Of a stretch of 64,000 nucleotides of DNA, positions 6,883-52,662 are shown piece by piece. Positions within the stretch are counted from its first letter, which is position 1. Each line of letters begins with the position of its first letter. Source of the DNA: Chloroherpetonaceae bacterium (GTDB taxonomy: Bacteria > Bacteroidota > Chlorobiia > Chlorobiales > Thermochlorobacteraceae); NCBI GenBank assembly GCA_033763895.1, contig JANRJQ010000004.1, forward strand, positions 804,319 through 868,318, in the 5' to 3' direction. Below the pieces are notes generated by a model that was given only the letters and a program-made list of their open reading frames with translations, had not been told where the DNA came from and made no database searches. The position numbers were made by a program, and so were the translations under genes.

Positions 6883-6913
6883 GCGTTTCTATCTTTTTGA
6901 TTTATTCAAGTAA

Positions 6914-6945
6914 GGCGAGCATTTTCAGCTCGCCTTTTCTTTTTC
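6914..6945 (+). terminator. rho-independent terminator
   Basis: GGCGAGC-attttca-GCTCGCC followed by TTTTCTTTTTC, 32 nt after the stop at 6882. Confidence 0.75.
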
Positions 6946-7071
6946 TTGTTTACAACGCTATCGATTTCGAAATTGAGTTTAATTCTTCACGAAAACCTTA
7001 TTTTCTTTTCCTATCGGTTTTATTATCGGTTTAAAATTGAATCCATTCATCTTTAATATTGGCTTTCATTC

Positions 7072-8169: not shown

Positions 8170-8274
8170 TCGTAAATTTAGCCCTCGTAAAAAAACCCAA
8201 AACTTTTTAATTAGGCTTGGCGTAAATTCACTGACCGTCGGTCATTCTGCCGGCCAAATAACTATTGTATCATC

Positions 8275-10860
8275 ATGACCAATTCGTTAAAAGATCCGTG
8301 GAGCGTTGAGCGTTTACCCGAACAACCCACACCGAATGCTCACTCTGCACCAAAAAATGGGAATCATCTTAACACCAACGGTGCGGCTAAAAAATTGTTA
8401 ACCTCCATTAAAGTTGATTTAGAAAAAAATACCGACGCTCACACGCTATTTCACTTTCCTTTTAAAACCTCTCTATCGCTCTCACCGCTTGTGGCGTATT
8501 GGGAAAAATTCGCCGAGCGTGACGATGCCATCCGAAATACATTAGGCAAAAGCATCCACCGAGAGATAAAGAAAATTCCCGAACTCCTGCTGCCCATTGA
8601 TTCAGATAATAAAGCGGAGCTTGAGGCATTTTTAGAACGCTTTGAAAATCATCGAGGCCTTTTGGATACAATGTTCTCTGTTGTTTTCCCTCCTGTTTCT
8701 TGGGAAAGCGATTATATGGCAGCCTTTATCCCGTTTAATTTCCAATCATTTTATGCGACACCTCCTTATGAAAAAATGATTCGTAAAAATGGCGGCATTC
8801 AGTCGTGGCTCAATCTCAACGAATCGGAAATGTCTTATGGCCGCGAACTCAAAGCCTTTACCCATATCGCAAAACAGATTTATGGCCTTGACATTCAAGA
8901 ATTTCAATACCCGTTTATTTTCAGAATCATCGACCCTGATACTTTGCTTGATCGGTATTTCCGCGCTTCTATCAATACCCGCTTCTGCGAAATTATCGCC
9001 CACGGCCCTGTCAAGCCACTGACCGAAACTGAAAAAAAACGTCTTTTTGCTAACCTTTCAGATTTAAATGTTTGGCGCGAACTCATCCCGCGCGAACAAT
9101 TTGAATTCCGTGGCTTTACCATTGTCAGTGCTCTGGATGTTACTGATCAGGAAGTGATTTCGGGGTTAAAACGAGACCTCATCGAGAAGGAATCCATCGT
9201 CTCCAATGCCCGTTTTGCAAGCCTTCGCCAATATATTCGTGCACTTATGAATAAGCCCGACTTACGAATGGCACTTGCTTCCGTCAATAAAGATGTGGTT
9301 ACCGTTCTTAATTATAATTGTGAAAATGCCGATGAGGAACTTGAAGCGCTTAGGAAAAAAAATTCTCCTGCACTTCGCTTCAGCATTTCAGAGCTGAAAG
9401 ATTCCATCCACTCAAAAGCCGTTTTGGAATCGCGTCCAATTTTAATAGAAGATATTCATGACATTCCCACAGAAAATCATTGTGACTCGCTCAAGAAGCT
9501 TTTTATTAAAGGGGTTCGCAATGTCTTTATCGCTCCGCTTCATTACCAAGGTGATGTGATCGGCGCACTGGAAATCTCTTCGCCCAATGCCGGAGATATC
9601 AACCCCATCAATGTGGTACGGCTCAAAGAAGTACTTCCGCTCTTTTCAATGGCAGTTAAACGCGCCAACGAAGAAAGCAACACCGAGCTGCAAGCGGTGA
9701 TTCGTGAAAAATTTACGGTGATTCACCCTTCTGTGGAGTGGCGATTTCAAGAGGCCGCTGAAGCGTGGATCGCTCGGCAGAACACTGGAATGAATTCCGA
9801 TTTGGACGAAATCATCTTCCGCGATGTTTACCCACTTTACGGCGTTTCAGATATTCGCAATTCCTCTTTGCTTCGCAATGCCGCCATTCAAGCCGATATG
9901 ATTCGGCAAATGCAGCTCGCCAAAGAGATTCTTGAAATGGCAGAAAAAGTAAAGCCTTTGCCGCTGATTCAAGAAATGATTTTTCATCTCAATTCTAAAA
10001 TGGATGGTTTTAAGAAGAGCTTAAGTTCGGGCGACGAAGGCTCAGCAATTGAGTTTTTGAAACATAAAATTGAAACCTTTTTCCCCGAAGCCGAAAGATT
10101 TTCAAAACCCATTAAATCTAAAATCGAAGCCTATCGATCACTTATTGATCCGCGGCTTGGGTTACTCTATGACAAGCGCAAAGCATTTGATGAAAGCGTT
10201 GCTTCGCTCTCCGAAGCGATCGCTCGATATTTCGATCATGAGCAAGATGCCGCGCAAAAAATGTTCCCGCATTATTACGAGCGTCATAAAACTGATGGGG
10301 TTGACCATACAATGTATATCGGCGCATCGATCTGCCCCGACGGCCGTTTCGACCCGCTTTATGCTCGCAACCTGCGGCTGTGGCAACTCATGACAATTTG
10401 CGGGGTCGCACGCCTTTCCGATCGAATGAAAGAAACACTTACGGTTCCGCTTGATACCGCGCACTTGATTTTAGTTCAAAGCGCACCGCTATCCATTCGA
10501 TTTCATATCGATGAAAAGCAATTTGATGTGGATGGTACTTATAACATTCGTTATGAGATTATGAAGAAACGCATCGATAAAGCTGTGGTGAAAGGCGAAT
10601 CGCAGCGCGTCACGCAGCCGGGGCGAATTGCCATCATTTACTCTCAGCAGCGGGAGATTGCTGAATACCGTGAAATGATTCAGTATCTTCAAAACATCTG
10701 CTTCCTTCAAAAGGAAGTGGAAGAATTGGAATTGGAAGATATGCAGGGCGTTCACGGACTTAAGGCGCTGCGTGTTACGGTCAATCTTTCGCTCAGAAAA
10801 GAAACGGAGACCTTTCATAGCTTGATTTCTTCGTTCAAAACCAGCCTTCCAGTTGAATAA
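8275..10860 (+). CDS. large GAF-domain-containing protein, function unknown
   Basis: 861-aa ORF. The central segment (LIEDIHDIPTENHCDSLKKLFIKGVRNVFIAPLHYQGDVIGALEISS) fits the GAF pattern. I do not recognise the rest. Confidence 0.6.
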   Translation: MTNSLKDPWSVERLPEQPTPNAHSAPKNGNHLNTNGAAKKLLTSIKVDLEKNTDAHTLFHFPFKTSLSLSPLVAYWEKFAERDDAIRNTLGKSIHREIKKIPELLLPIDSDNKAELEAFLERFENHRGLLDTMFSVVFPPVSWESDYMAAFIPFNFQSFYATPPYEKMIRKNGGIQSWLNLNESEMSYGRELKAFTHIAKQIYGLDIQEFQYPFIFRIIDPDTLLDRYFRASINTRFCEIIAHGPVKPLTETEKKRLFANLSDLNVWRELIPREQFEFRGFTIVSALDVTDQEVISGLKRDLIEKESIVSNARFASLRQYIRALMNKPDLRMALASVNKDVVTVLNYNCENADEELEALRKKNSPALRFSISELKDSIHSKAVLESRPILIEDIHDIPTENHCDSLKKLFIKGVRNVFIAPLHYQGDVIGALEISSPNAGDINPINVVRLKEVLPLFSMAVKRANEESNTELQAVIREKFTVIHPSVEWRFQEAAEAWIARQNTGMNSDLDEIIFRDVYPLYGVSDIRNSSLLRNAAIQADMIRQMQLAKEILEMAEKVKPLPLIQEMIFHLNSKMDGFKKSLSSGDEGSAIEFLKHKIETFFPEAERFSKPIKSKIEAYRSLIDPRLGLLYDKRKAFDESVASLSEAIARYFDHEQDAAQKMFPHYYERHKTDGVDHTMYIGASICPDGRFDPLYARNLRLWQLMTICGVARLSDRMKETLTVPLDTAHLILVQSAPLSIRFHIDEKQFDVDGTYNIRYEIMKKRIDKAVVKGESQRVTQPGRIAIIYSQQREIAEYREMIQYLQNICFLQKEVEELELEDMQGVHGLKALRVTVNLSLRKETETFHSLISSFKTSLPVE

Positions 10861-15554: not shown

Positions 15555-17849
15555 TTACTTCACCAAAGTCATCTTCATTGTCTTTACAAAACTGCCCGAT
15601 TGCAACCGATAAAAATACACCCCGCTTGAAAGGGATGATGCATTAAATGGCACTTCATATCGACCTGCCTCTTGGCGTTGATTAAGGAGAGTAGCGACTT
15701 TTCTCCCCAGCATATCAAAAACGTCTAACTGAACCACTCCGCTTTGCAGCAATTGATAGGCAATTTGAGTGGTTGGGTTAAAAGGATTGGGGTAGTTTTG
15801 TTCTAACGCATAGGTTGATACTTTTTGCTTTGTTTCGGAGACGGAAAGGGGTGACTGTCTCCACCGCGCAAAGCGCGACGCTGAAACCCCACCAGCGCTC
15901 GTGAAACCACCACCCACAAATACATCACTTCCGCTGACCACAATCGCAGAAACATTCGAATTCACCCCTGTACCCAAGGCATCCCAACTTGTCCCGTTCC
16001 ACAGCGCAAAATAGTCTGCTGCCGCAACCCCCCCGGCGTTCATGAAACCGCCGCCTACATAGATATCGCCGCCGCTGGTTGCAATTTCTTCTACTGTACC
16101 ATTCAGACCTGTTCCAAGCGCATTCCAACTCGTACCGTCCCACCTTGCAATACAATCAGCACTTGCGTTCCCACCTACATCAGAGAAGCCCCCACCTATA
16201 TACACATTGCTACCACTAATTACGATGGCTTTAACCGAGCCATTCCCCCCTATCCCTGTTCCGAGGGAATTCCAACTTGCGCCGTCCCATCGTGCGATAC
16301 GATCTGCATTAGCGTTTCCCCCGGCATTAGTGAACTCTCCTCCTACATACACATTGCTACCACTTGCCGCAATCGCGTAAACCGACCAATTCAAACCTAT
16401 ACCGAGCGCATTCCAATTCGTGCCATCCCATCGTGCGATACGGTCTGCATTAGCGTTCCCACCCGCGTCAGTGAAATTTCCACCCACATAGACATCGTTG
16501 CTACTAACCGCGATGGCAAAAACGGTATTATTCAGCCCCGTACCCAAGGCATTCCAACTTGTCCCGTTCCACCTCGCAATATAGTCTGCCGCAACAATCC
16601 CCCCCGCGTCTGTAAACCAGCCTCCTACATAGACATCGCTGCCGTTTACCGCAATGGCGTTAACCGAGTTATTCAGCCCCGTGCCAAGTGCATTCCAATT
16701 TGTGCCATCCCATCGTGCAATACCTACAGCATTCGGGTTTCCTCCTGCTCTAAAGAAACTGCCGCTTACATAAATATTACTCCCACTAACTGCAATGTCA
16801 GAAATACTACCATTCAAGCCTGTACCTGTACCGAGAGCATTCCAATTTTTGCCGTCCCACTTTGCAAAATGACTTTCGCCTATTATCTCGCCTACATCCC
16901 CGAAGATACCACCGACATACACATCGCTCCCATTGAATGTAATGGCGCGAACCAATCCAGAGGTCCATCCTATTCCGAACTCTTTCCAACTTGTACCGTC
17001 CCACATCGCAATTCCATTCGCATCCAATAACTCCCCGGCGTGCCTAAAATTTCCTCCAACATAGACATTATTTCCGTTGACAGTAATTGTGTAGACCGTA
17101 CCGCTATTGACCCCCGTACCCAGTGCATTCCAATTATTCCCGTTCCAACGCGCGACACCGTCTGCATTAGGATTCCCGCCTGCATCAGTGAACTCTCCCC
17201 CCGCATAGACATCATTCCCGCTAAGTGTAATAGCAAAAACAAAACTATTCAGACCTGTGCCAAGAGAATTCCAACTCGTGCCGTCCCATCTTGCTATATT
17301 GTCGGCATTTGGGTTTCCTCCCGCATTCCAAAATGTACCTCCTACATAAACGTTGCTATCACTAATCGCTATGGCCCAAGCCGTGTTATTCAGCCCTGTG
17401 CCAAGAGAATTCCAATTAGTACCATCCCACCTTGCTATCCAACATATACTGGAATCCCCACCCGAGTCACTGAACTCACCACCTACATAAACATCACTGC
17501 CGCTAACCGCTAAGGCATAAACCTGACCACCATTCAAACCCATACCTAGTGCACTCCAACTTTTCCCGTCCCACCGTGCAACATAATCTGCATTAGGATT
17601 CCCTCCCGCGTCAGTGAACCCGCCGCCCACATAGACATCGTTGCTACTAACCGCGATGGCAAAAACGGTATTATTCAGCCCCGTACCCAAGGCATTCCAA
17701 CTTGTCCCGTTCCACCGTGCAATAAAATCCGCATTTGTTTTCCCTCCTGCAAATCTGAATCCACCGCCCACATAGACATCACTGCCACTAATTGCAATTG
17801 CACTCACAATACCGCCAAATTGGGTGGGTTTCCTCCAAGCCCCTCCCAA
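15555..17849 (-). CDS. T9SS-sorted repeat protein (about 13-14 beta-propeller-like 50-aa repeats), body ORF lacking its signal peptide
   Basis: 764-aa ORF. The repeat ARWDGTSWNALGTGLN..V.AIAVSGS.VYVGG.FT.AGG occurs about 13 times. The C-terminal 80 aa or so (NYPNPFNPTT...GVYFYRL...KMTLVK) matches the Por/T9SS C-terminal sorting domain pattern. The ORF track places the start at a TTG. Confidence 0.8.
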   Translation of the reverse strand: MGGAWRKPTQFGGIVSAIAISGSDVYVGGGFRFAGGKTNADFIARWNGTSWNALGTGLNNTVFAIAVSSNDVYVGGGFTDAGGNPNADYVARWDGKSWSALGMGLNGGQVYALAVSGSDVYVGGEFSDSGGDSSICWIARWDGTNWNSLGTGLNNTAWAIAISDSNVYVGGTFWNAGGNPNADNIARWDGTSWNSLGTGLNSFVFAITLSGNDVYAGGEFTDAGGNPNADGVARWNGNNWNALGTGVNSGTVYTITVNGNNVYVGGNFRHAGELLDANGIAMWDGTSWKEFGIGWTSGLVRAITFNGSDVYVGGIFGDVGEIIGESHFAKWDGKNWNALGTGTGLNGSISDIAVSGSNIYVSGSFFRAGGNPNAVGIARWDGTNWNALGTGLNNSVNAIAVNGSDVYVGGWFTDAGGIVAADYIARWNGTSWNALGTGLNNTVFAIAVSSNDVYVGGNFTDAGGNANADRIARWDGTNWNALGIGLNWSVYAIAASGSNVYVGGEFTNAGGNANADRIARWDGASWNSLGTGIGGNGSVKAIVISGSNVYIGGGFSDVGGNASADCIARWDGTSWNALGTGLNGTVEEIATSGGDIYVGGGFMNAGGVAAADYFALWNGTSWDALGTGVNSNVSAIVVSGSDVFVGGGFTSAGGVSASRFARWRQSPLSVSETKQKVSTYALEQNYPNPFNPTTQIAYQLLQSGVVQLDVFDMLGRKVATLLNQRQEAGRYEVPFNASSLSSGVYFYRLQSGSFVKTMKMTLVK

Positions 17850-30230: not shown

Positions 30231-30815
30231 TCAGCTCCCTTTCTCTTTTAAGGCAACTTTTCGAATGACCTTCTCACAGCCTTTGGTCATCCAAGCGGCA
30301 ATTTCATTGTAAGAAGGCAATTTTGGCTTATTTTTTTTCGTTGAACGATCTCGATCTCCTTCCTTTTTTGAGCCGCTACCGACAAATAAAAACGCAATTT
30401 GCAGTATGCCTTGTATCCCTGCCGACTCTCCGCAGTTGTAAATCACTTCCTTCTGAAGACGAAAAGCTTCTCGCATTAAGCGTTTAATTCGATTGCGTCT
30501 TGTCGCTTTAGGCTCAATTCTTTTTCCCACACTAAAAAGTGCTTGTATTCGAAACAATTTCGATTGTTCAACTTTCAGTATTTGGGTTTCCTTTTCAACA
30601 TCCAATTGCGTTTCCATTAGGGAGGGGTTCTTCTCATTCATTCCCATTTTTTCAACATCGAGGCGTTTGATTCTGCAAAGCATTTTCACCCCGCCCTCCC
30701 TGTGCACTGCAACACTCGAAGCGTTTTTATCAAAGAGCATCTCAAGCTCCTTTTTTGAGCGAATGATTTCTTCCTTTGTTAGCCCTGCCACTTTGGTGTC
30801 TTTTGCTTTATTCAA
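30231..30815 (-). CDS. rnpA: ribonuclease P protein component (long form)
   Basis: RNR motif KATRRNRIKRLMREAFR, N-terminal IIRSKKELEMLF element, and a position directly downstream of rpmH. At 194 aa it is long for this family. Confidence 0.75.
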   Translation of the reverse strand: MNKAKDTKVAGLTKEEIIRSKKELEMLFDKNASSVAVHREGGVKMLCRIKRLDVEKMGMNEKNPSLMETQLDVEKETQILKVEQSKLFRIQALFSVGKRIEPKATRRNRIKRLMREAFRLQKEVIYNCGESAGIQGILQIAFLFVGSGSKKEGDRDRSTKKNKPKLPSYNEIAAWMTKGCEKVIRKVALKEKGS

Positions 30816-32181: not shown

Positions 32182-33942
32182 ATGGCTGAAAAACCAACTT
32201 CTTCGCTGATGAAAATCGGCCTCGAAATCTCTTCCTCTGCCCCATTGCCTTCGGGGTCGGAGTCGCCTTCCCTTTCGTCAAAATCCGCTTCGGCAAAGTC
32301 CGACCGCCAAAAAAAGGATCCGCTTCAAATTTCTTTGGAAATTCCACCTGCTGAATCTTCTCAGACACATGAATCCATTGAAGACCAAAAGTCAAACGAG
32401 ACGACACCTAAAACGCCATCGCTTGTAAATGCCACGGGATCCACACAAAAAGAAATAAACCAACCGTATCAGCCATTGCACTTAAAGCCCTCTGCGGAAC
32501 AAATTGCGGATCCTTTGGCGTCAAGCCGCACAGCCTCCGAGGTTTGGAATCAGTGCCTTGATTTCTTGCGCGATAACCTCAATCCTCAAGCCTTCAGCAC
32601 TTGGTTCGAACCCATCACGGCCGTCTCTCTTGTTGGTGAAGAACTTACCGTGCAAGTGAAAAGCCATTTTATTTATGAATTCATCGAAGAAAATTATTAC
32701 AACATTCTTCGCAGCAGTTTAATCAAGTTTGTGGGGCCCGGGGCAAAAATGCTTTACTCCGTTGAAGTGGTCAAGACGCAAGACCAAATGCCTTCCGTCA
32801 CGCTCACTTTACCACAGCAACATATCGAACAGCAATCGGAGCTTACACCTTATCGCATTTCGCAAAATCGGAAAATTTCTGAGCTGTTTCGCGCCAATGT
32901 CGAGCGGTTTCAAAGCTACCTGAACCCAAAGTATAGTTTCGATAACTACATCAAGGGCGATTGCAATGTTTTGGCCTACGCCGCTGCAAAATCTGTGGCT
33001 GAAAACCCCGGAAATAACAGCTATAACCCGCTTTTTATTTACGGCGGAGTCGGGCTGGGTAAAACCCACTTAATCCAATCTATTGGCAATTATGCTCGTG
33101 CAAAACAAAAGGCTGAGTTCGTGCTTTATGTTTCAAGCGAAAAATTCACTATCGATTTTGTAAGCGCCATTCAGAACGACCGAATTCGGGAATTTGCCGA
33201 GTTCTATCGCAGTATTGATTTGCTTATAATCGATGACATTCAATTCTTTGCCGGAAAAGAAAAAACGCAGGAAGAAATTTTTCACATCTTCAATGCCCTT
33301 TTTCAATCCAATAAACAAATTGTGCTCTCAAGCGATCGTCCGTTAAAAGATATTCGCGATATCGAAGAACGCCTTCTTTCACGCTTTGCTTCCGGTCTTT
33401 CAGCCGATTTGCAACTGCCCGATTATGAAACGCGGCTTGCCATCTTAAACCGCAAAAGCGAAGAACACGGCATCACCCTTGCGCGAGATGTCTCGCAATT
33501 CATTTGTACCAATGTCAATAGCAACATTCGTGAAATGGAAGGTTGCCTTATTAAACTCCTTGCCACGGCTTCGATTTCAGGGCAAGAAATCGATCTTGCG
33601 CTCGCAAAAAATGCCTTACGTGATATCATCAGAGAAAAAAGCAAGACCGTAACGCTTGAAATGATTGAAAAAGTCGTTGCCGATTATTTCGGACTCTCTG
33701 CCAATGACCTCAAAGGAAAATCGCGTAAACAGGAAATTGCGGAAGCTCGTCAAGTGGCAATGTTCCTTTCGAAAAATCAAACCGGTAAAACCCTTAAAAC
33801 AATTGGCCTTCACTTCGGCGGCCGCGATCACACCACCGTCATGCATGCCGTTTCGACCATTGAGTCTAAGCTCAATTCTTCTTTTGAAACCCGCCAAACG
33901 GTTGATGAACTTCGCAGAAGGCTTGATATCATCTCGCTTTAA
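32182..33942 (+). CDS. dnaA: chromosomal replication initiator protein DnaA (with long N-terminal low-complexity extension, start uncertain)
   Basis: Domain I-like EVWNQCLDFLRDNLNPQAFSTWFEPI begins at about residue 120. AAA+ Walker A GGVGLGKTHL and Walker B LLIIDDIQF. C-terminal DNA-binding region (QVAMFLSK...GGRDHTTVMHA). Confidence 0.92.
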   Translation: MAEKPTSSLMKIGLEISSSAPLPSGSESPSLSSKSASAKSDRQKKDPLQISLEIPPAESSQTHESIEDQKSNETTPKTPSLVNATGSTQKEINQPYQPLHLKPSAEQIADPLASSRTASEVWNQCLDFLRDNLNPQAFSTWFEPITAVSLVGEELTVQVKSHFIYEFIEENYYNILRSSLIKFVGPGAKMLYSVEVVKTQDQMPSVTLTLPQQHIEQQSELTPYRISQNRKISELFRANVERFQSYLNPKYSFDNYIKGDCNVLAYAAAKSVAENPGNNSYNPLFIYGGVGLGKTHLIQSIGNYARAKQKAEFVLYVSSEKFTIDFVSAIQNDRIREFAEFYRSIDLLIIDDIQFFAGKEKTQEEIFHIFNALFQSNKQIVLSSDRPLKDIRDIEERLLSRFASGLSADLQLPDYETRLAILNRKSEEHGITLARDVSQFICTNVNSNIREMEGCLIKLLATASISGQEIDLALAKNALRDIIREKSKTVTLEMIEKVVADYFGLSANDLKGKSRKQEIAEARQVAMFLSKNQTGKTLKTIGLHFGGRDHTTVMHAVSTIESKLNSSFETRQTVDELRRRLDIISL

Positions 33943-34241
33943 CAATCAATTGATTGTGGCCATTTCGCCGAAGCGTTTGCTTTCCATCCCATTCACCTCC
34001 ATTCAGATTAAACAATCATTGTTTCCCTTTTTGCTATTTTCGTTTTTCGATCTTTCCCGAAATGGTTTTCATTTTGGGACTTCTGCTTATAACTTTTTAC
34101 TTAATTCGAAGAATTAACGATTTCCTCTCGTTGAAGCGTTCTTTGAATGATGTTTTGGATACCTTTAACGAATCCTTAGGTATTTGATGGGCTTTGATAT
34201 TTGCTTTCGCATTTACATTTTTGAAAAACTCTGACCAACAA

Positions 34242-36701
34242 ATGGATTTATTTTCTCAACCCGTTGCCGCCTCACCGGAAAGTTCTCCCGAGCTGACCAA
34301 TGAAGAGGCAAAAAAGCTCTCTCTAGCCGCCGGGTTTCTTTCGAATGAATTGCTTTATGGAAAAGATTCAGAAGAAAATATTATCGCTGTTTCTACCCTT
34401 AACGATACACATATCCGCGTCTATAAACGAGATCGTTCCGGAAGCCTGATCCACCGAGATGACCCCTGTTATCCATTTTTCTTTCTATCCAAACACGGGT
34501 TTTTGAAAGACTTCCGCTCGGCTGATGGTTTTTGGTTGAAAGATCTCGAAGGCAATAATTATTACAAGCATCTGGCCATTTTTAGAAGTTGGAAGGAATA
34601 CCGTGCCGCTCAAGACTATGTTGCCGATACGAAGCGTCGGTTAAACCCAAAAGAAACCTTGGTAAGCGATGAAGATGGATTCGGGAATCGTGTAGAAGAA
34701 ATTTATGCCAAAGGTGACGCCTCTTCTCAATACCTTTTCCAATCAGGGAAAACGCTCTTCAAAGGGATGACTTTTCAAGATTTGCGCCGATTACAGTTGG
34801 ATATCGAAACCTACTGGAAGCCCGAAGCCACTCGTTCCGGAAAAATTGAAATCGGTAAAGATCCAATCATCATTGTCTCCCTTTCCGATAGCTCCGGTTG
34901 GGAAAAAGTCATTCACACAAAAGCACAAAGTGAAAAGGCCTTATTGCTTGAACTCATTGAAATCATTAAAGAGCGCGACCCCGATGTCATTGAAGGTCAT
35001 AACATTTTCAGTTTCGATTTACCTTACATTCAACGCCGCTGTGAACTTAATGGGGTTCGCTTTACCATAGGTCGCGATGGCTCCCTCCCACGCAGCTATC
35101 CGGCAAGCATTCGATTTGCCGAGCGCACCATCGATTACCCCTACTGCGAAATCGCCGGCCGTCATGTGGTGGATACTTTGTTTCTGGTTCAATATTTTGA
35201 TTCCGTCAAGCGGGCAATGCCTAGCTATAGCCTCAAAGAATCCGCCAAGTACTTCGGATTTGCTTCTGATTCCCGCACATACATTGCTCACGAAGACATC
35301 GCCCATACGTGGGATACCAATCCTGAGAAGCTTCTGAATTATGCGCTCGATGATGTTCGTGAAGCCGGAAAACTTTCCGAACTCCTTTCGGGGAGCAATT
35401 TTTATATGACCCAAATGATGCCCTTTTCCTACGGACAGGTTTCGAGAATGGGCCCTGCGGCAAAGATTGAAGCCCTCTTTGTTCGCGAATACTTGCGGCA
35501 AAAGCACTCACTTCCTCGGCCTCAAATCGGGCAGCAGGAGTCGGGCGGGTTTACCGAAGTTTTTCTTAAAGGAATTTTAGGTCCAATCGTTTATGCCGAT
35601 GTCGAATCGCTTTATCCATCCATTATGCTCACTTTTGATATTTGCCCAAAGTCAGATGAGCGAAAACTTTTTCCTAAAATTCTTAAAGACCTAAAAGAAC
35701 TTCGCTTTACCGCGAAACGCCGCGCCAAAACTTCCTCCGAAAAAGCCGAGCGTGACCTTTATGATGCAATGCAGAATTCCTTCAAGATTCTCATCAACGC
35801 AATGTATGGCTACCTTGGGTTTCGAGCAGGAATCTTTAATGATTATGCCGAAGCCGACCGGGTTACAACCAAAGGCCAAGAAATCGCCAAAAAAATGATT
35901 GTTGAATTCGAAAAACGCGGAAGCCGCGTGGTGGAAGTTGATACCGATGGAATTCTTTTAATTCCCCCTCCCAACGTTCAAGGTGAAGACGATGAACGCG
36001 CTTTGGTGAAATCAGTTTCCGACACAATGCCCGAAGGGATTTCAATCGCTTACGATGGTCGATTCAAAAAAATGATTTCTTATATGAAGAAGAACTATGT
36101 TCTTCAATCGTATGACGGCAAATTGAAAATCAAAGGGTCGTCCCTTGTTTCACGTAGCGGAGAAAAATTTGGCCGAGAGTTTGTCAAAAAGGGGTTCCAA
36201 CATCTGCTTGATTTCGATATCGTGGGGCTGCATCAACTCTTTATTCACACCCGCGAGCGAATTATCAAAAAAGAAATGGATGTCTCGGAATTCAGTCGAA
36301 CCGAAAGCCTCAAGGAATCAATGGATGAATACAAACTTGGTGTTAAAAATGGTAAGCCGAAACGAATCACTTATGAAGTTTTGATTCGTGCAAAAAAAGT
36401 TGCTTCAAAAGGTGACCGTGTGACCTACTACCTTTCAGGTTCCGGAATTATCGGAAATAACGCAGAAAAAGGAAAACTTTCATCGGAGTGGAATAAAGAC
36501 AAGCCTGATCAAAACATCGACTTTTACCTGCGCAGACTTGACGAATTCACCGATAAGTTTAAGCCTTTCTTCAAGCCCTCGGATTTCAGCCGAATTTTCA
36601 CCGCCGATGAGCTTTTTGGATTTACACCTGAGGGAATCGAATTGATTACAGAAATTCAAAATCGCGATAGTTCTGAAATCGATGATGAAGTTCCCTTTTA
36701 G
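34242..36701 (+). CDS. polB: family B DNA polymerase (Pol II-like)
   Basis: ExoI LQLDIETY, Exo[12 protein letters not shown], ExoIII YALDDV, motif [11 protein letters not shown], motif [13 protein letters not shown], motif C VEVDTDG. The ORF track starts at TTG 34194, but ATG 34242 (MDLFSQP) is more likely. Confidence 0.88.
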
Positions 36702-36947: not shown

Positions 36948-38120
36948 ATGTCCACAGTAGCTACTGATGTCCAAAAACGCCGCGTGCTCGTTGTTGATGA
37001 TGAGCCAAACATCGCCATCGGCATTCTAAAAACTTTAGGTCAACACCAACACTACTTTGCTAAGCATGCCCCAACCGGAGATTTAGCCGTTGAATTGCTG
37101 AAAAAAGAATCTTACGATTTGGTGATTACCGATATCAAGATGCCCAATAGCAAATTTCAGGGAATTGACTTGCTTCGGCATATTAGAACCAACTATCCGG
37201 ATATTGGTGTCATCATCATGACCGCCTACGGTTCAACCGCAGTTCAGGAAGAGGCCTCTCGGCGAGGGTCTCTTTTATATCTTGAAAAACCATTTGAATT
37301 CACCCATCTCCAACAAGTTGTTGATGATTTTTTTGATCGTAAAGAACATACTGCTGCACCTGCCGAGGCCGAAGCCGATAGCGGGGTTCAAGGTGTGATT
37401 CCGGGTCTTTCGTTAATGGATGTGATCCAAATGAATTGCCTTTCACGATCAACATGTACATTTCTTATTCAAAAAAGCGACGGTTCAGGGCAAGGTATTA
37501 TTTGCTTCAACAAAGGCGATATCACGCATGCCGAAACGCCAAACCGCAGCGGAAAAGATGCGTTTTTAGAAATCGTTTCTTGGCAAGGTGGAAGTTTTGA
37601 AACCCTTGATCAGATTTCGCCTACTGTTACCATTGTTGAAAGTTGGGAACAACTGATGATGGAGGCAGTGATGTTAATGCCTGATGCACCTGTTGCTCAG
37701 CCCGGCGCCGCTTCTCCAAAGGCAGTTGCTAAGCCACAAGCACCCGCACCGAAGCCGCAAGCCGACCTTGACCCAGCGAAAATGCTTGATCGCGTGCTCG
37801 ATGCCGCGAAAGCTGATGCCGCTTTTTTAGTCACACACAGTGGTTTTATGCTTGATAAACGTGTCAAAGCAACTTTAGATATTACGAAAACCGGCGATGA
37901 AATTGCCAAGTTGATGCCCGGCGTTTTTGCTTTCGGAAAGAATATTGGGGGAGGAACACTTTCTGAAATCACCTTTCGCTTCGGAAACAAAATTGTGATG
38001 GTGCGCAATGTCCAAGAGAGTGAAGCACTGTTTATTGTAATTTCACCGGCATCAATTACTTCGGGTGATATATTCAAAGCAATTGATCGTGAATCAGCAA
38101 CGCTCAAAAAAATTCTTTAA
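36948..38120 (+). CDS. response regulator: receiver + DUF4388 (PATAN-type) + Pro/Ala linker + Roadblock/LC7-like C-terminal domain
   Basis: REC motifs VLVVDDE, DLVITDIKMP, IIMTAYG and LEKPF. DUF4388-like LSLMDVIQMNCLSRSTCTFLI...GIICFNKGDITHAE...AFLEIVSWQGGSFE. Linker PGAASPKAVAKPQAPAPKPQ. The C-terminal 110 aa or so shows a Roadblock-like pattern (AAFLVTHSGFML...ITFRFGNKIVMVRNV...LFIVIS). Confidence 0.75.
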   Translation: MSTVATDVQKRRVLVVDDEPNIAIGILKTLGQHQHYFAKHAPTGDLAVELLKKESYDLVITDIKMPNSKFQGIDLLRHIRTNYPDIGVIIMTAYGSTAVQEEASRRGSLLYLEKPFEFTHLQQVVDDFFDRKEHTAAPAEAEADSGVQGVIPGLSLMDVIQMNCLSRSTCTFLIQKSDGSGQGIICFNKGDITHAETPNRSGKDAFLEIVSWQGGSFETLDQISPTVTIVESWEQLMMEAVMLMPDAPVAQPGAASPKAVAKPQAPAPKPQADLDPAKMLDRVLDAAKADAAFLVTHSGFMLDKRVKATLDITKTGDEIAKLMPGVFAFGKNIGGGTLSEITFRFGNKIVMVRNVQESEALFIVISPASITSGDIFKAIDRESATLKKIL

Positions 38121-38217
38121 AGCAACTTGTTCGATATCTTTTAAGTTTTTGATTTAGAAATCGATTAGCTTTTTGTAACTTTTTCTCATATCCTGCAAAT
38201 AAAGCGCAGGGGTTTTC

Positions 38218-38583
38218 ATGACAAATTTTAGTGAAGTTCTTTCCGTATTTAACGGAATCCAAGGGGTAATCGGTGTTTCCGTTGTCGATAGCGATGGAAT
38301 GCATTTGGTATCTTCATTTCCCGGGACGGAATTCAATGATGCCCTTTCGCCGGTCATTTGCTATTTAACAAGTGATGCGACAAAGCATCTTCAAGTTTTG
38401 GGTGAGTCTCCAAATCAGGTTTGTATTTCGATGAGTGATAAATTAATTATAATCCAATTGGTTTATGATCTCATCCTTGTGGTTTATAGTCAGAAGCGCA
38501 ATTTGCACGCAGTTCAAACAGCCATCGAATCCGCTTCATTAATCTTGAATCGAATTGCAACAGTAGAATTTTCAAACACATAA
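38218..38583 (+). CDS. mglB: Roadblock/LC7 domain protein (MglB-like GTPase-activating partner)
   Basis: 121 aa. The pattern GVIGVSVVDSDGMHLVSSFP ... KLIIIQLVYDLILVVY is typical of Roadblock/LC7. It lies 11 nt upstream of the mglA-like gene. Confidence 0.75.
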   Translation: MTNFSEVLSVFNGIQGVIGVSVVDSDGMHLVSSFPGTEFNDALSPVICYLTSDATKHLQVLGESPNQVCISMSDKLIIIQLVYDLILVVYSQKRNLHAVQTAIESASLILNRIATVEFSNT

Positions 38584-38594
38584 CTTTATCAGCA

Positions 38595-39290
38595 ATGGCA
38601 AATATCAATTACGCGAATAAGGAAATCATTATTAAGATCGTTTACTACGGTCCGGGGATGAGCGGAAAAACCACCAACTTGCAAGTGCTTCATCAAATGG
38701 TTCCGCAAGATTCCGCAAGCAAGATGATTTCACTTGCCACAGAGCAAGATCGCACCCTGTTTTTCGATTTATTGCCAATTTCATTGGGCTCAGTGAAAGG
38801 CTTCAATACTAAGTTTCAGCTTTACACCGTTCCGGGTCAGGTTTATTACAATACCACAAGAAAATTGGTGCTTAATGGCGTTGATGGCGTTGTTTTTGTC
38901 GCAGATTCTCAGCAAGGAAAAATGCCTGAAAACATTGAAAGTTTGAATAACCTTAAAGATAATCTTTCTGAGTATGGGATTGATATGGCCAAGTTTCCGG
39001 TTGTATTGCAGTACAATAAGCGAGATGTGGCTAATCCAATTACCATCGATGAATTCCAATCAACCTTAAATGCTGCTTACAACTTTCCTTATTCTGAAGC
39101 AGTTGCCTTTAAAGGTCAAGGTTTAATGGAAACATTGAAGTTGATTAGCAAAATAACATTGCAGCGCATTGGCTCTAAAACCAGTTCCGCCACAACACCG
39201 GCAGAGCCCTCTGCTCAGCCAGCGAACCCTGCGACACCACCACCGCAAGCCAGCAGCGAATTTTTCAAGAATCTTCAAAAGAAAATGTAA
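38595..39290 (+). CDS. mglA: MglA-family Ras-like small GTPase with Pro/Ala-rich C-terminal extension
   Basis: Colinear with Myxococcus MglA as I recall it: NYANKEIIIKIVYYGPGMSGKTTN, DRTLFFD, LYTVPGQV, GVDGVVFVADSQ, QYNKRD. It has about 35 extra C-terminal residues. Confidence 0.88.
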   Translation: MANINYANKEIIIKIVYYGPGMSGKTTNLQVLHQMVPQDSASKMISLATEQDRTLFFDLLPISLGSVKGFNTKFQLYTVPGQVYYNTTRKLVLNGVDGVVFVADSQQGKMPENIESLNNLKDNLSEYGIDMAKFPVVLQYNKRDVANPITIDEFQSTLNAAYNFPYSEAVAFKGQGLMETLKLISKITLQRIGSKTSSATTPAEPSAQPANPATPPPQASSEFFKNLQKKM

Positions 39291-39311
39291 GCCATTATCT
39301 TTTATAAAGTT

Positions 39312-39337
39312 GAAAAGCCCCGATTTCGGGGCTTTTC
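39312..39337. terminator. bidirectional rho-independent terminator between convergent mglA and clpB-fragment genes
   Basis: GAAAAGCCCCGA-tt-TCGGGGCTTTTC, a perfect palindrome flanked by A/T runs on both sides. Confidence 0.8.
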
Positions 39338-39379
39338 AACTTTATATTACTTCTCCAATATCATTTATAAATATTCTTC

Positions 39380-40708
39380 TCATTTTTTAGTAAATGTGAT
39401 TTCTGTCCCATTTAATCCAATCTCAATTTGATCCCCTTCACGAAAAGTGCCTGAAAGAATTTTTTCTGCCAATGTATTGACAATTGTTCGCTGCATCACG
39501 CGCTTGAGTGGCCGAGCACCAAAGGAAGGATCGTAGCCCAATTGTGACAACCAATCTTTTGCCGCTTCATTCAGCTCAAGGGTTAAGCCTTGTTTTTGGG
39601 CCGATTCCCGAATCCGTTCAAATTGAATCTGCACAATGGCATTCGTTTCATCTCGGGTAAGTGGCATGAACATAATCACCTCATCAATTCGGTTTAAGAA
39701 TTCAGGGCGCACTTTTTTTCTTAACAGTTCAAACACTTCAACCTTTAACTTTGATACCACTTCCCGTCGGTTATCATCGGTAATGAATTGAAGTTGATCT
39801 TGAATCAGTTGCGAACCCAAATTGCTTGTCATGATAATTATGGTATTCTTAAAGTTAACTACATGACCTTTGTTATCGGTCAACCGGCCATCATCAAGCA
39901 CTTGTAAAAGAATATTAAAGACATCTTGATGCGCTTTTTCTATTTCATCCAAGAGCACAACAGAAAAGGGATGTCGCCTTACTGCTTCAGTGAGTTGCCC
40001 GCCTTCATCATACCCCACATAACCCGGCGGTGCACCAACCAGCCTTGATACGCTATGAGCTTCCATATACTCGCTCATATCAATTCGTACCAAGGCATTT
40101 TCGTCGTTAAATAAATATTCAGCTAAACTCTTGGCTAATTCCGTTTTACCTACGCCAGTTGTTCCTAAAAAAATGAATGATCCGATTGGCCGCCGTTCAT
40201 CTGAAAGCCCTGCCCTTGCCCGCCTTACGGCTTCGGCTACTGCTTTTATGGCTTCATCTTGGCCGATTACGCGTTTGTGTAATTCAGATTCAAGCGAAAG
40301 GAGTTTTTGCCGCTCCGATTGTAACATCTTTGAAACAGGAATCCCTGTCCATTTGGCCACCACTTGCGCAATATCCTCTGCACCGACTTCCTCTTTCATC
40401 ATCGCACCATTTTGCTGCATCGTTTCGAGTCTTGTTTTAGCTGATTCAAGTTCTTTTTGCAAGGCGGTAATTTTACCATAGCGCAATTCTGCTACTTTAC
40501 CGAAATCACCGTTTCGCTCAAATTCTTCTGCCTGAACCTTTGCTGACTCTATTTCACTCTTCAATCGTCGTAATTCTGTGATGGCCTCTTTTTCCCGTTG
40601 CCACTTCGCTTGTATTCGCGATTGCTCCTCGCGTAAATCAGCCAATTCCCGTTCGATTTCCTGAAGCCTAACTTCAGTTAGAGAAATCACTTCGTTTTCT
40701 TTTTTCAT
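39380..40708 (-). CDS. ClpB-like AAA+ protein consisting only of distal M-domain + NBD2 + C-terminal small domain
   Basis: 442 aa. It aligns to the C-terminal half of ClpB: [30 protein letters not shown], Walker [10 protein letters not shown], Walker [40 protein letters not shown] lies 4 nt upstream of the ATG. There is no NBD1 coding sequence upstream. Confidence 0.8.
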
Positions 40709-40819
40709 TTTTCGCTCCTTGATTTCCTTTTATGAAAATCTAAATCCGTAAATTTTTGTTATAAATATTTGTCTTCTGCTTTGTTCTTATAACATTTTTT
40801 TGAATTAATTCACTTCATT

Positions 40820-41272
40820 ATGTCTCAAGCTTTAATGAGCCCGCGTTGGCTTCGCCTTGTAAAAGTTGAAGAAATCGAAACGGATGTTTATTTCATCGAT
40901 CTTTATGTTTCTCCTTTGCCGGCGGCTGAACTCATTTCACAACACTTGTCTGAAAACCCCGTCCTTTATGCTTTTGCCGTTTTTAACAAAGAGAATAAAT
41001 ATCTTTTGAGTTATGCGCTTGAAATTCGCGAAACCTCTCGCCTTCTTGATTCAGGCGAAGAAGAAACATACATTGGCTATTTTCTTGAAACATATTGTGA
41101 ACACAAGCAATTCAGTTGTAAGAATTTTAAGGAAACCACACCAACGCTCGAAACAGTTCGCGCCTTTGTCCTCTCACTTGTTAATGAATACGATGCTATC
41201 CCCAAGATGATCAATTACGACCAAGAATCTGCCAAAAGGGACATCGTTCAAGATTCCGATGAAGGCGAGTAG
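40820..41272 (+). CDS. hypothetical acidic protein
   Basis: 150-aa ORF with no recognisable motif. Its 3' end overlaps convergent folK by about 25 nt. Confidence 0.45.
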   Translation: MSQALMSPRWLRLVKVEEIETDVYFIDLYVSPLPAAELISQHLSENPVLYAFAVFNKENKYLLSYALEIRETSRLLDSGEEETYIGYFLETYCEHKQFSCKNFKETTPTLETVRAFVLSLVNEYDAIPKMINYDQESAKRDIVQDSDEGE

Positions 41273-41874
41273 CGTAAACTCAGTTTTTTCGCTGTTAACT
41301 TCGTTGAATTTGATTTTTGTTCCTTTCCATTTTCGCTTGATAAAGTTGAATCACTTTCAAGAATCTTTAAAAGGTCGCTACACTTCGAATTGAATATCGG
41401 ATGAATCGGGTTTCCGACTTCCAAGAGTGGCCGCAAGACAAATTCTCTCCGGTGCAATTCGGGATGTGGGATGGTTAGAACATCAGATTTTATCACCAAC
41501 TGATCGTAAAAGAGGATATCCAAATCAAGTGGTCGCGATTCCCATTTTTTTCTTGGCTCTCGCCCGCTTTCTTTTTCTAGTTGCTTCAGTTCTCGAAGTA
41601 ATTCCTCTGGACTTAATTTCGTTTCAATTAGCCAAACGGCATTGAGGTATGGTGGTTTTGAATAATCGATTCCTTCCGTTGTTAGTGCCGGACTTTCCCA
41701 AAAGCTGGAGCCTTTCAAGACCCGAAGCGAAAGATGATGCTGCAGTCGATTTAATGCAGTTTCAAGCGTTTCGTGTGGGATTCCAAATTTCCCTGCCACA
41801 TTTGCTCCTGCGCCAAGCCAAACTAAATGCCAATCGTTTTCAGGTGAGCGCATATTCCACTTCAGCATAGTCAC
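41248..41874 (-). CDS. folK: 2-amino-4-hydroxy-6-hydroxymethyldihydropteridine diphosphokinase (HPPK) with C-terminal extension
   Basis: WESRPLDLDILFYD, LTIPHPELHRREFVLRPLLEV and an N-terminal LGAGAN pattern. The start is uncertain because the ORF overlaps the folB end. Confidence 0.85.
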   Translation of the reverse strand: MTMLKWNMRSPENDWHLVWLGAGANVAGKFGIPHETLETALNRLQHHLSLRVLKGSSFWESPALTTEGIDYSKPPYLNAVWLIETKLSPEELLRELKQLEKESGREPRKKWESRPLDLDILFYDQLVIKSDVLTIPHPELHRREFVLRPLLEVGNPIHPIFNSKCSDLLKILESDSTLSSENGKEQKSNSTKLTAKKLSLRYSPSSES

Positions 41875-42271
41875 AAACCCCGCCCACGGGTGGGTTTCGC
41901 TTTCTCACCTTTACTTTAATTTCCTCAATATCTGCAAAGTCCTTTTTGAGTTCTTCAGCAATATTTTTTGCAACCTTTTCGATGAGGTAGTATTTTTTGG
42001 GTGTGATTACTTCTTTCATAATTTTATACACTTTTTCATAATCAACGGTCTTTGAGAGTGAATCCGTCGCACCTGCTTCTGTAAAGTTGTAGGTTAATTC
42101 GACATCGACTTCATATCGAGCACCAACTTTATGTTCGGCTTCGCTTACCCCGTGATGAGCATAAAAGATGGCATTGACCAATCTGATTTTTCCTTTTGAA
42201 GTTGTCATTTTTCCGTTGACAATTTCATGTTTTAGTACTTTTTCGTTACCTGTGTTTTTTTGATTTTCCAT
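41840..42271 (-). CDS. folB: dihydroneopterin aldolase
   Basis: 143 aa. IRLVNAIFYAHHGVSEAEHKVGARYEVDVEL ... DSLSKTVDYEKVY ... LIEKVA matches the FolB pattern. Confidence 0.85.
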   Translation of the reverse strand: MENQKNTGNEKVLKHEIVNGKMTTSKGKIRLVNAIFYAHHGVSEAEHKVGARYEVDVELTYNFTEAGATDSLSKTVDYEKVYKIMKEVITPKKYYLIEKVAKNIAEELKKDFADIEEIKVKVRKRNPPVGGVCDYAEVEYALT

Positions 42272-42346
42272 TTTGATTTTTCTGTGTGCTTTTCCCCTTT
42301 TGCCTTAAATTACCTTAGCAATCTATTATACGCTAATCATATTCTC

Positions 42347-43000
42347 ATGCCTGAGCTTCATCTCATTCCTCTATTCCCTTTGCCGGTTGTGGTTTGCCCA
42401 ACCGAGCCATTACCACTTCATATTTTTGAAGAACGCTACAAGCAAATGATTGCCGACTGTCGCAAAGAACTATTGGGCGATCGGCCTTTGCCTTTTGGTG
42501 TTTCACTCGCTTATAACAACAAACTCTATACCATCGGTTGTTCCGTAGAAATTACTGAAGTGGTGAGCGAATATCCTGACGGACAATTGGATATTATCAC
42601 TACAGGCTTAACCCGTTATAAAATGATTGAAACCTATCGAGACCGTGCCTATATGCGCGCTCAAGTAGAATATTTTCAAGATGATGACCATCAAGTTGAT
42701 ATACTTCAACGTGAACGCGCCATCACACTTCACATGAAGTTCCGTGAACTCATTCAAGGCGAGACATTTGTTGAGGAATATGAAGAAACTGATTCCGTTT
42801 CGTTTCGCATCGCACATTCCTCAGGTTTTGATGTGCTTCAAAAGCAAAAATTATTAGAGATGCGGAGTGAAACTGAGCGACTCCTTTTTATTATTTCTTA
42901 CTTTGAAAAGGCCATTCCTGAAATTGAACGTTCTGAAGAAATTAAGCGACGGGTTCGCTCCAATGGTCATTTCAAAAATTTTGATTCACCAAATTTTTAA
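42347..43000 (+). CDS. standalone Lon N-terminal (LON substrate-binding) domain protein
   Basis: LIPLFPLPVVVCPTEPLPLHIFEERYKQMI is typical of the Lon N-domain. I chose ATG 42347 over the ORF-track start at 42260. Confidence 0.7.
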   Translation: MPELHLIPLFPLPVVVCPTEPLPLHIFEERYKQMIADCRKELLGDRPLPFGVSLAYNNKLYTIGCSVEITEVVSEYPDGQLDIITTGLTRYKMIETYRDRAYMRAQVEYFQDDDHQVDILQRERAITLHMKFRELIQGETFVEEYEETDSVSFRIAHSSGFDVLQKQKLLEMRSETERLLFIISYFEKAIPEIERSEEIKRRVRSNGHFKNFDSPNF

Positions 43001-51197: not shown

Positions 51198-51563
51198 TTA
51201 GAATTCAAGTCCAGCTGATCGAGCACCATCAGCTAATGCTTTTACACGACCGTGATATCGATATCCGTTTCGGTCGAAGACCACCTGTTTAATTCCAAGT
51301 CCCTTTGCTTTTTCTGCCAATTCTTTACCAACCCATTCGCTGACTTCTGACTTCTTTTTTCCCTTGAGTGTGGTAGTGGCAGTTTTGCCTAATGAACCAG
51401 CAGCACAAAGCGTTTGGCCTGTTTCGTCATTAATGACTTGCGCGTAAATAAATCGCAAGCTACGAAATATTGATAGACGAGGGCGTTCCGAAGTTCCATA
51501 TACTTTCTTTCGAACGCGCTTTTTTATTTTAACTCTCTTTTCTGCTTTTACAATTGGATTCAT
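51198..51563 (-). CDS. rplR: 50S ribosomal protein L18
   Basis: [26 protein letters not shown]...[28 protein letters not shown]. Confidence 0.97.
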
Positions 51564-51604
51564 TTTTCATATAGGCGATATTGGCCGCCTGTTTTGATTA
51601 GCGA

Positions 51605-52150
51605 TTATTTACCTGCTGTTTTACCTTCTTTGCGTCTTACGGCTTCGCCTTCAAAGCGAATCCCTTTACCTTGATACGGCTCAGGTTTTCTGAACGATCG
51701 AATTTTGGATGCAACCTCACCCACCATACGCTTGTCAATTCCTGAAATCAAGATGTTTGTCGGCGATGGTGCTTCAACTTTAACTCCATCTGGCGCTTTG
51801 AATGCTATTTGATGCGAATAACCGACCGAAAGAACCAAGTAACTTTGTTTCATTTCAGCCTTAAAACCAACACCCACAATTTCTAATTTCTTTGAATACC
51901 CTTGGGTTACTCCAATAATCATATTATTGAGGAGCGCTCGATATAAACCGTGAAACGCTTTTGTCTGCTTATCTTCAGCATCTCCACGGTTAATTACAAT
52001 GGTATTGTCTTTTACTTCAACAGCGAGTTTATCGGTATTGAATACTTGCGAAAGCTCTCCTTTTGGACCGGTAACTTTGAGCACTTGATTCTTATACTCA
52101 ACCTTAACGCCTTTTGGAAGTTCAACAGGTTTTTTTCCTATTCTTGACAT
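51605..52150 (-). CDS. rplF: 50S ribosomal protein L6
   Basis: MSRIGKKPVELPKGVKVE...VGVGFKA...PEPYQGKGIR. Confidence 0.97.
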   Translation of the reverse strand: MSRIGKKPVELPKGVKVEYKNQVLKVTGPKGELSQVFNTDKLAVEVKDNTIVINRGDAEDKQTKAFHGLYRALLNNMIIGVTQGYSKKLEIVGVGFKAEMKQSYLVLSVGYSHQIAFKAPDGVKVEAPSPTNILISGIDKRMVGEVASKIRSFRKPEPYQGKGIRFEGEAVRRKEGKTAGK

Positions 52151-52173
52151 AGTTCTTCTTGGGTCAGTAAGAT

Positions 52174-52569
52174 TTAGTGAATTCTGAAAAGTACTTCTCC
52201 GCCAATACCGGCCGCACGGGCTTCTTTATCTGTCATAAGTCCGCGTGAAGTCGATACAACGGATAGACCTAACCCTCTCAAATAGGGTTTAATTTCTTTG
52301 TTTGTGTAAACTCTTCGGCCTGAAGTACTGATTCGATCAAGAGATTTTATGGCGTGTTGACCATAAGCATCGTACTTTAGGTGCACTCGAAGGGTTGGAA
52401 AGTTATTGATGCTTTCAACCGAAAAGTCACGAATGTACCCTTTATCTTTTAGAAGCCTTGAAATCGCGACTTTAAGCTTCGAAGATGGAACATCCAAACT
52501 TTTGTGTTTGGCTTTTGCTGCATTACGAATTCTCGTCAAGTAGTCAGCAACAGGATCTTGTACTGGCAT
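52174..52569 (-). CDS. rpsH: 30S ribosomal protein S8
   Basis: DPVADYLTRIRNA...GLSVVSTSRGLMTDKEARAAGIGGEVL. Confidence 0.97.
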   Translation of the reverse strand: MPVQDPVADYLTRIRNAAKAKHKSLDVPSSKLKVAISRLLKDKGYIRDFSVESINNFPTLRVHLKYDAYGQHAIKSLDRISTSGRRVYTNKEIKPYLRGLGLSVVSTSRGLMTDKEARAAGIGGEVLFRIH

Positions 52570-52662
52570 AGATATTGGTGAATTCTGCGCGTTCCGTCGG
52601 AGATGACGGCGGCCGCAGGTTATCGGAATAGATTACAATTGTCCCTTTCGGGAAGCAAAACT

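Follow-up and report, generated by a model that had tools for sequence, protein, structure and literature searches.

The clpB C-half gene of a Chloroherpetonaceae bacterium

We analyzed a 64,000-nucleotide stretch of DNA (the window; contig JANRJQ010000004.1, positions 804,319 to 868,318) from a metagenome-assembled genome (MAG) of a Chloroherpetonaceae bacterium, and here we focus on a gene in it that encodes half of the chaperone ClpB. ClpB and Hsp104 are the textbook two-ring disaggregases, in which the communication between the rings and the middle domain is still under study. According to the list of open reading frames (ORFs) of the window, the gene at 39380-40708 on the reverse strand is an intact ORF of 442 amino acids (aa) that starts with ATG. 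Its product begins within the ClpB middle domain, of which it has the distal helices L2-L4, and continues through an entire second nucleotide-binding domain (NBD2) and the D2-small domain; it is identical to NCBI MDX2128238.1 (P0001, “MAG: Chloroherpetonaceae bacterium”), encoded on a contig of 959,073 bp. We call this protein the C-half, and the complementary part of ClpB, with the Clp_N domain, the first nucleotide-binding domain (NBD1) and middle-domain helix L1, the N-half.

Pfam placed AAA_2, the NBD2 core, at residues 173-344 (E 1e-68; 39677..40192, reverse strand) and ClpB_D2-small (PF10431) at residues 350-430 (E 1.9e-25; 39419..39661, reverse strand). Residues 1-122 (40343..40708, reverse strand) hold a 13-residue head followed by L2, L3 and L4, including ELRYGK, as delimited by predicted helices and by an alignment to Thermus thermophilus ClpB (1QVR) that begins at residue 428. 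In the AlphaFold2 model of the protein (predicted local distance difference test score 73.9), helices span residues 2-65, 69-99 and 110-121, long helices of the kind expected. The NCBIfam ClpB profile TIGR03346 (853 positions) was matched only from 425 to 852, with 629.4 bits, which leaves the ORF on its own under the curated whole-protein cut-off of 1232.1 bits; the same ORF scored 389 bits for ClpA. An Escherichia coli ClpB probe matched the window with 52% identity over residues 430-849; the positions given here were taken from the alignments to NCBIfam and PDB entries.

Every motif expected of a ClpB NBD2 is present on the reverse strand: Walker A (GTTGVGKT, residue 182; 40139-40165), the pore loop with its tyrosine (GAPPGYVGY, residue 225; 40010-40036), Walker B (LLDEIEKAH, residue 252; 39929-39955), RPEF.NR.DE (residue 334) and GARPLKR (residue 397; 39500-39520), in addition to ELRYGK at residue 74. 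The C-terminal D2-small domain is present as well. The ClpP-docking IG[FL] loop, which discriminates ClpA and ClpC from ClpB, is absent from the NBD2 core, again a ClpB-like feature; the sole [IL]G[FLM] in the ORF is IGL at residue 430, where the D2-small match ends, beyond the AAA core. What the ORF lacks of a ClpB is a Clp_N domain and NBD1 on the same polypeptide, and helix L1 of the four middle-domain helices; the long coiled-coil middle domain would be whole only upon pairing of the two chains. Searched with E. coli ClpB and two genuine N-half proteins, the 64 kb of the window yielded neither an N-domain nor an NBD1.

Upstream of the gene, a Shine-Dalgarno-like AAGGAG (40715..40720, reverse strand) lies within an AT-rich spacer of 111 nt (40709..40819) that separates the start codon from a divergent ORF. 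The spacer presumably holds the promoter of the C-half gene, and a scan for sigma-70-type promoters gave no match inside it. The C-half ORF cannot be extended in frame upstream. Downstream, a terminator-like hairpin (39303..39346), with a 20-bp stem, a GC-rich center and A/T runs on both sides, is situated between the C-half gene and a convergent MglA-like GTPase gene. The divergent neighbor (40820-41272, forward strand) is a 150-aa candidate ORF without a Pfam or NCBIfam family and without a tblastn match in the relatives’ loci compared; at its end it shares 25 nt with the 3′ terminus of HPPK, a gene convergent with it (41248-41874).

A preliminary description, made from the letters of the sequence, had read the ORF as a 442-aa half-ClpB of distal middle domain, NBD2 and small domain, had named its Walker motifs, GARPLKR and a middle-domain landmark, and had reported the N-domain and NBD1 as absent. 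Pfam, TIGR03346, 1QVR and the motif scan bear out all of this. It had further stated that only the 111-nt spacer and a divergent ORF lie upstream, the missing half not being merely frameshifted there, and indeed we found no N-half in any frame. Its distance of 4 nt between AAGGAG and the ATG needs correction to 6 nt (spacer CGAAAA).

Conservation across Chlorobiales and a partner gene

The 120 best database clusters for the window protein range from 384 to 472 aa, nearly all of them 436-445 aa, at 64-78% identity, and derive from Chloroherpeton, Thermochlorobacter, Prosthecochloris, Chlorobium, Pelodictyon and Chlorobaculum, in part from finished genomes of isolates. Within Chlorobiales, C-halves of 436-472 aa show 64-77% identity. 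The same C-half boundaries recur in the isolate chromosomes of Chloroherpeton thalassium (CP001100), Pelodictyon luteolum (CP000096) and Prosthecochloris aestuarii. All catalytic motif residues were invariant in an alignment of 13 Chlorobiales sequences, whose starts agree within a few residues, and the distal middle domain (residues 1-122) is conserved in the order as well. In five related genes, in-frame stops occur 1-20 codons upstream of the start, so that none can be extended. Comparisons of the window gene with loci L001-L004 and L084 gave saturated proportions of synonymous differences (pS 0.78-0.95) and much lower proportions of nonsynonymous differences (pN 0.18-0.29). Judged by these sequence comparisons, the C-half is under strong purifying selection and of constant size across the order.

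These patterns bear directly on two explanations of a short gene. One is that the ORF is a decaying remnant or pseudogene of a truncated clpB, as might be supposed of half of a normally single gene that reaches 629 bits against a cut-off of 1232. However, the ORF is intact, at least 120 clusters order-wide share its size and start, and its catalytic residues have stayed invariant under the purifying selection just described, so we rejected this explanation as having virtually no chance of being right. The other is that one gene was split artificially, through faulty assembly or binning or a frameshift, a concern since the window comes from a MAG and one that the preliminary description had raised for an error or contig join at about 40.7 kb. 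Identical boundaries in three finished chromosomes, in-frame stops shortly before the start codon of every orthologue checked, and the absence of N-half coding sequence in any frame within the 64 kb all speak against it, and we dismissed it as practically impossible. Conservation, invariant residues, upstream stops and the pS and pN values together leave no room for a recently truncated gene, a pseudogene or a misassembly.

The missing half appears to be encoded elsewhere. No N-half was present within 10 kb of five C-halves, namely those of the window, C. thalassium (L001), P. luteolum (L002), another Chloroherpetonaceae MAG (L003) and L085. A search of genome contigs with the C-half, which supplied outgroups as well as L003 and L004, returned mostly full-length ClpB from other phyla and no N-half among the matches listed. 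Using the N-terminal half of a full-length ClpB (L006) as query, we recovered many proteins of 436-440 aa with Clp_N, AAA and AAA_lid_9 domains that end in “...QLEIEREAL[KR]REL” plus 0-7 residues, some of them on megabase contigs; their source labels were Ignavibacteria, Kapabacteria and “Chlorobi bacterium.” The N-half P0178, used as a query, retrieved no Chlorobiales N-half among 150 representatives. The Ignavibacteria-like locus L084 carries dnaK, an N-half (P0150, stop codon TGA), a 22-nt spacer with GGAG and a C-half of 453 aa, in that order, and L083 carries an N-half alone. At L086, a 440-aa N-half lies 3.3 kb upstream of, and on the same strand as, a C-half (P0057) that is 67% identical to the window protein. 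With the L086 N-half as query, Chlorobiales N-halves were finally retrieved, 438-443 aa long and consisting of Clp_N, NBD1 and helix L1.

In nine cases an N-half and a C-half share a contig, including complete Chlorobiaceae chromosomes. These were scored by the identical size of the longest contig: P. luteolum (2,364,842 bp), P. aestuarii (2,512,923 bp), Prosthecochloris sp. HL-130-GSB (2,414,726 bp), Prosthecochloris sp. ZM (2,653,521 bp), Prosthecochloris sp. ZM_2 / N3 (2,141,884 bp), a further Prosthecochloris sp. (280,780 bp), Chlorobium sp. (738,128 bp), Thermochlorobacter sp. (98,173 bp) and L086 (72,710 bp). Coordinates confirmed the co-occurrence in P. luteolum (CP000096; N-half 168,098-169,426, C-half 2,283,545-2,284,870), in Thermochlorobacter (JBKBSK010000013.1; N-half 51,265-52,596 on the forward strand, C-half 15,582-16,910 on the reverse strand), in L086 and in L084. 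The N-half was found in every genome where both halves could be sought; both complementary genes occur together in one genome.

For the window lineage, the candidate partner is P0430 (MDX2128446.1), an N-half of 442 aa that is also labeled “MAG: Chloroherpetonaceae bacterium” and comes from another contig (524,516 bp). Its accession follows that of the window protein by 208 numbers. Identity to the respective Thermochlorobacter half is 78% for P0430 and 77% for the window C-half, and these matching levels of divergence fit an origin of both from one MAG. The N-half retains GEPGVGKT, LFIDEIH, the pore loop KFRGEFE (with Phe for the usual Tyr) and LERRFQ. Across N-halves, Walker A, Walker B, the pore loop and the arginine fingers are preserved, and their alignment, with a mean column identity of 80%, shows the motifs intact, as expected under purifying selection. 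Searches with N-half queries (440-441 aa) listed no target above ~765 aa, though full-length ClpBs near the query exist; targets much longer than the query seem to be disfavored, and the lists are therefore uninformative on full-length copies of clpB.

The preliminary description had left three options, of which a split clpB with its partner elsewhere is the one that gains support, from MDX2128446.1 and the nine shared contigs; the recent truncation remnant falls, and an expressed single-ring protein is disfavored, as discussed below. An ORF for the N-domain plus NBD1 does exist outside the window in the form of P0430, apparently in the same MAG; the same short gene is found in relatives throughout the order; and the comparison with orthologues points to selection on the protein sequence.

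The cut site and its history

The two halves complement each other closely. On TIGR03346, P0430 covers positions 1-432 (666.5 bits) and the window protein 425-852, and the simple sum of their scores (1296 bits) exceeds the ClpB cut-off that neither reaches by itself. ClpB was the top family for both, far over ClpA, ClpV and ClpK/G. Aligned to T. thermophilus ClpB (1QVR), P0430 corresponds to residues 2-428 and the window protein to 428-844; aligned to E. coli ClpB (4D2Q), the N-half corresponds to 6-435 and the C-half to 437-853. By these alignments, the halves tile ClpB, with no gap between them and no extensive overlap. In unsplit relatives, the sequence at the junction is “QLEIEREAIRRE-KDEASKD-RLEDVERELAE.” Since the N-half terminates a few residues past “RE” and the C-half begins with its 13-residue head, the break falls within the middle domain, in the surface loop that joins L1 and L2, with L1 remaining attached to NBD1 and L2-L4 to NBD2. 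We take this loop to be the tip of middle-domain motif 1. Motif 2, which contacts DnaK, is presumably located in L2-L3 and hence on the C-half.

The exactness of these ends also bears on whether the halves might be rejoined by a split intein through protein trans-splicing. “Fractured genes” with split inteins are known in bacteria (PMC2677866). In the present case, however, the N-half stops and the C-half starts no more than a few residues beyond the stretch that aligns with ClpB, which leaves no room for intein pieces of ~100 aa and ~35 aa, and the first 60 residues of the C-half contain no HN[CST] junction. We rejected trans-splicing on these grounds and attach a negligible probability to it.

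A neighbor-joining tree of C-half regions grouped the Chlorobiales genes in one clade, whose sister is an Ignavibacteria-like group that mixes split (L004, L084) and unsplit (L005, L006, L008) genes. Among the proteins retrieved with the L006 query, three types of loop can be distinguished: a canonical unsplit loop, “REKDEASKxRL”; a split one, “REL..” followed by a stop; and an unsplit one that is ~10 residues longer, “RELSAEYADESDRQAINTHIL.IE” (also “RELSAEYADESD...”), and begins like the tail of a split N-half. Examples of the long-loop type are L005 (5981-8623), P0135, P0152-P0157, P0180 and P0217. These forms may be secondary re-fusions of split halves. All three types are intermixed among close Ignavibacteria-like relatives, which suggests, as far as sequence can tell, repeated fission and/or re-fusion at one loop.

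Several further observations were made on genes of this family. A MAG labeled “uncultured Chlorobiaceae bacterium” contains a full-length, Ignavibacteria-like ClpB of 875 aa (L008, 8687-11314), which could reflect mis-binning or mislabeling, or else lateral transfer as proposed for Chlorobium phaeobacteroides in an earlier comparative study (PMC1887533). An N-half-like protein of 432 aa (P0320) has Trp at universally conserved Gly positions (e.g., “WDPWVGKTA”), which suggests an organism that reads TGA as Gly and was translated with the wrong genetic code; its terminus, “...LEVEKEALLRE,” coincides with that of the split N-halves. In P. luteolum (L087, 8147-9193) as well as in the Kapabacteria-like L083 (14006-15058), tsaD is found close to the N-half, and the C-half adjoins folK (HPPK) both in Thermochlorobacter (L089, 11310-11828) and, in the opposite order, in the window. 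We regard both arrangements as traces of local synteny.

Beyond the C-half gene, the window holds a trio of forward-strand genes convergent with it. The first (36948-38120) encodes a DUF4388 response regulator, the second (38218-38583) a small protein with a weak LAMTOR5 match that we take as Roadblock/MglB-like, and the third (38595-39290) a small GTPase of the Ras/Arf type that we take as MglA-like. Together (36948-39290), they look like a bacterial polarity/motility GTPase module. The presence of rnpA (30231-30815, reverse strand) and dnaA (32182-33942, forward strand) places the window probably near the replication origin. Directly after dnaA follows a family-B DNA polymerase of 835 aa (34194-36701, forward strand), a departure from the usual dnaA-dnaN arrangement. 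A 246-aa protein consisting only of the LON substrate-binding (N-terminal) domain is encoded at 42260-43000 on the forward strand; like the half-ClpB, from which it is separated by a few kb, it is a stand-alone piece of an AAA+ protease-type protein. At 5215-10860 on the forward strand, three large ORFs in a row (555, 365 and 861 aa) gave no Pfam match at E <= 1e-5.

A probable two-gene ClpB disaggregase

Taken together, the results make it very likely, in our judgment, that the window ORF encodes the C-terminal subunit of a two-gene ClpB disaggregase that reassembles non-covalently. An ancestral clpB was cut between helices L1 and L2, at a point equivalent to E. coli residues ~435/437 and T. 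thermophilus residue 428. The N-half and C-half polypeptides would pair 1:1, with L1 packing on L2 as a normal antiparallel coiled coil beside the NBD1-NBD2 interface, and six such pairs would build the usual two-tier hexamer. This hexamer would thread aggregated proteins together with DnaK, DnaJ, and GrpE, a partnership that fits the order dnaK, N-half, C-half at L084. The C-half alone is probably monomeric and inactive.

Compared with canonical ClpB (that of E. coli, T. thermophilus 1QVR or TIGR03346), the two halves together have the same domains in the same order and the same ATPase and pore motifs. They differ in being two polypeptides, with unlinked genes in Chlorobiales and a chain broken in the L1/L2 loop, and in each reaching only about half of the family cut-off. 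The adjacent split clpB of L084 is cut at the same site as in the window lineage and gives the same pair of products, and its C-half region groups with those of Chlorobiales in the neighbor-joining tree; there the halves are neighbors in an apparent dnaK operon, whereas in the window lineage they are dispersed. A short ClpB isoform, produced from an internal start, lacks only the N-domain. It resembles the window protein in being a natural ClpB product below full size, but it keeps NBD1, the middle domain and NBD2 on one chain, while the window protein has no NBD1.

The preliminary description had called this isoform the only known natural short form, which is incomplete, as Skd3 (human CLPB) is a natural single-ring relative (PMC7343390). 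Skd3, like the window protein, has a single NBD2-type AAA+ module with a D2-small-like end, and it works as a disaggregase without a second ring (PMC7343390). It is a precedent for the main rival explanation, namely that the C-half is an autonomous single-ring AAA+ protein, similar to Skd3 or ClpX, and the N-half an unrelated second machine. The two genes being unlinked in Chlorobiales, each with different neighbors, and the C-half having its own ribosome-binding site and terminator are in keeping with such independence. Nevertheless, NBD2 of ClpB or Hsp104, once isolated, reportedly shows no activity and forms no hexamers (PMC7343390). Skd3 also carries ankyrin repeats in cis, which it requires (PMC7343390); the window protein has half a middle domain in their place, with no comparable accessory domain in the Pfam results, and NBD1 is carried by a partner gene. 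Moreover, the C-half has retained one side of a coiled coil, and the helix that would pair with it, L1, forms the end of the N-half; an N-half accompanies the C-half in all genomes that could be checked; and the halves tile exactly. We therefore consider an autonomous single ring quite improbable.

A parallel to a ClpB assembled from two chains is an engineered one. Split T. thermophilus ClpB, made as N-terminal domain-NBD1-middle domain plus NBD2, regains chaperone activity in trans, and its NBD2 alone is inactive (Beinker et al., 2005, J Biol Chem 280:37965, as described in PMC7343390 and PMC4239642). In that account, as here, the two AAA+ modules are on separate chains; the engineered cut follows the whole middle domain, whereas in the natural case L1 goes with the N-half and L2-L4 go with the C-half, and the coiled coil itself would therefore bridge the chains. 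We thus regard split clpB as the natural counterpart of the engineered split and not as a new kind of system.

Several points weigh against a reassembling two-gene ClpB. Pairing of the two proteins, and disaggregation by them, are inferred from sequence and by analogy, and because the natural cut is inside the middle domain and the engineered one after it, reconstitution would be an extrapolation. MDX2128446.1 is assigned to the MAG of the window by inference, from accession proximity and organism name only. The two genes are unlinked in Chlorobiales, and their upstream regions, compared by eye, showed no convincing shared promoter or heat-shock element. Finally, an N-half (P0489) is listed for C. 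phaeobacteroides, a species for which a full-length ClpB is reported (PMC1887533).

The study that reports it concluded that most Chlorobi are without ClpB and that C. phaeobacteroides has one. Judging from an alignment fragment and from loop sizes, the indel studied there probably lies in the very loop where clpB is cut, which would explain why the halves were missed (PMC1887533). Our searches of the full-text literature found no description of a naturally split ClpB, and split clpB genes have been in public genomes since the first Chlorobi sequences. Each half falls under the ClpB cut-off and is labeled otherwise by NCBI (“AAA family ATPase,” “Clp protease N-terminal domain-containing protein”), which the present results would allow to be fixed. 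UniProt reportedly lists a “Probable chaperone protein ClpB 1” and a “ClpB 2” for Chlorobaculum tepidum, entries to which we give no weight as evidence.

It is tempting to go further and propose that the split is used, not merely tolerated, and that the L1/L2 loop is an evolutionary toggle, a joint reading that we rate as unlikely. Since the two genes are unlinked, a cell could adjust how much active disaggregase it has via the supply of the C-half, and the N-half (NBD1 plus L1) might act as a single-ring ATPase of its own when the C-half is scarce. Were the toggle real, it would be a case of an AAA+ machine repeatedly split and re-fused at one site. Regardless, a whole bacterial order has apparently long been running ClpB as two polypeptides cut inside the regulatory coiled coil. 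These organisms would extend the in-vitro split result of 2005 to living cells, offer ready pairs of halves for mixing, and provide a natural system for asking what the covalent link between the ClpB rings contributes.

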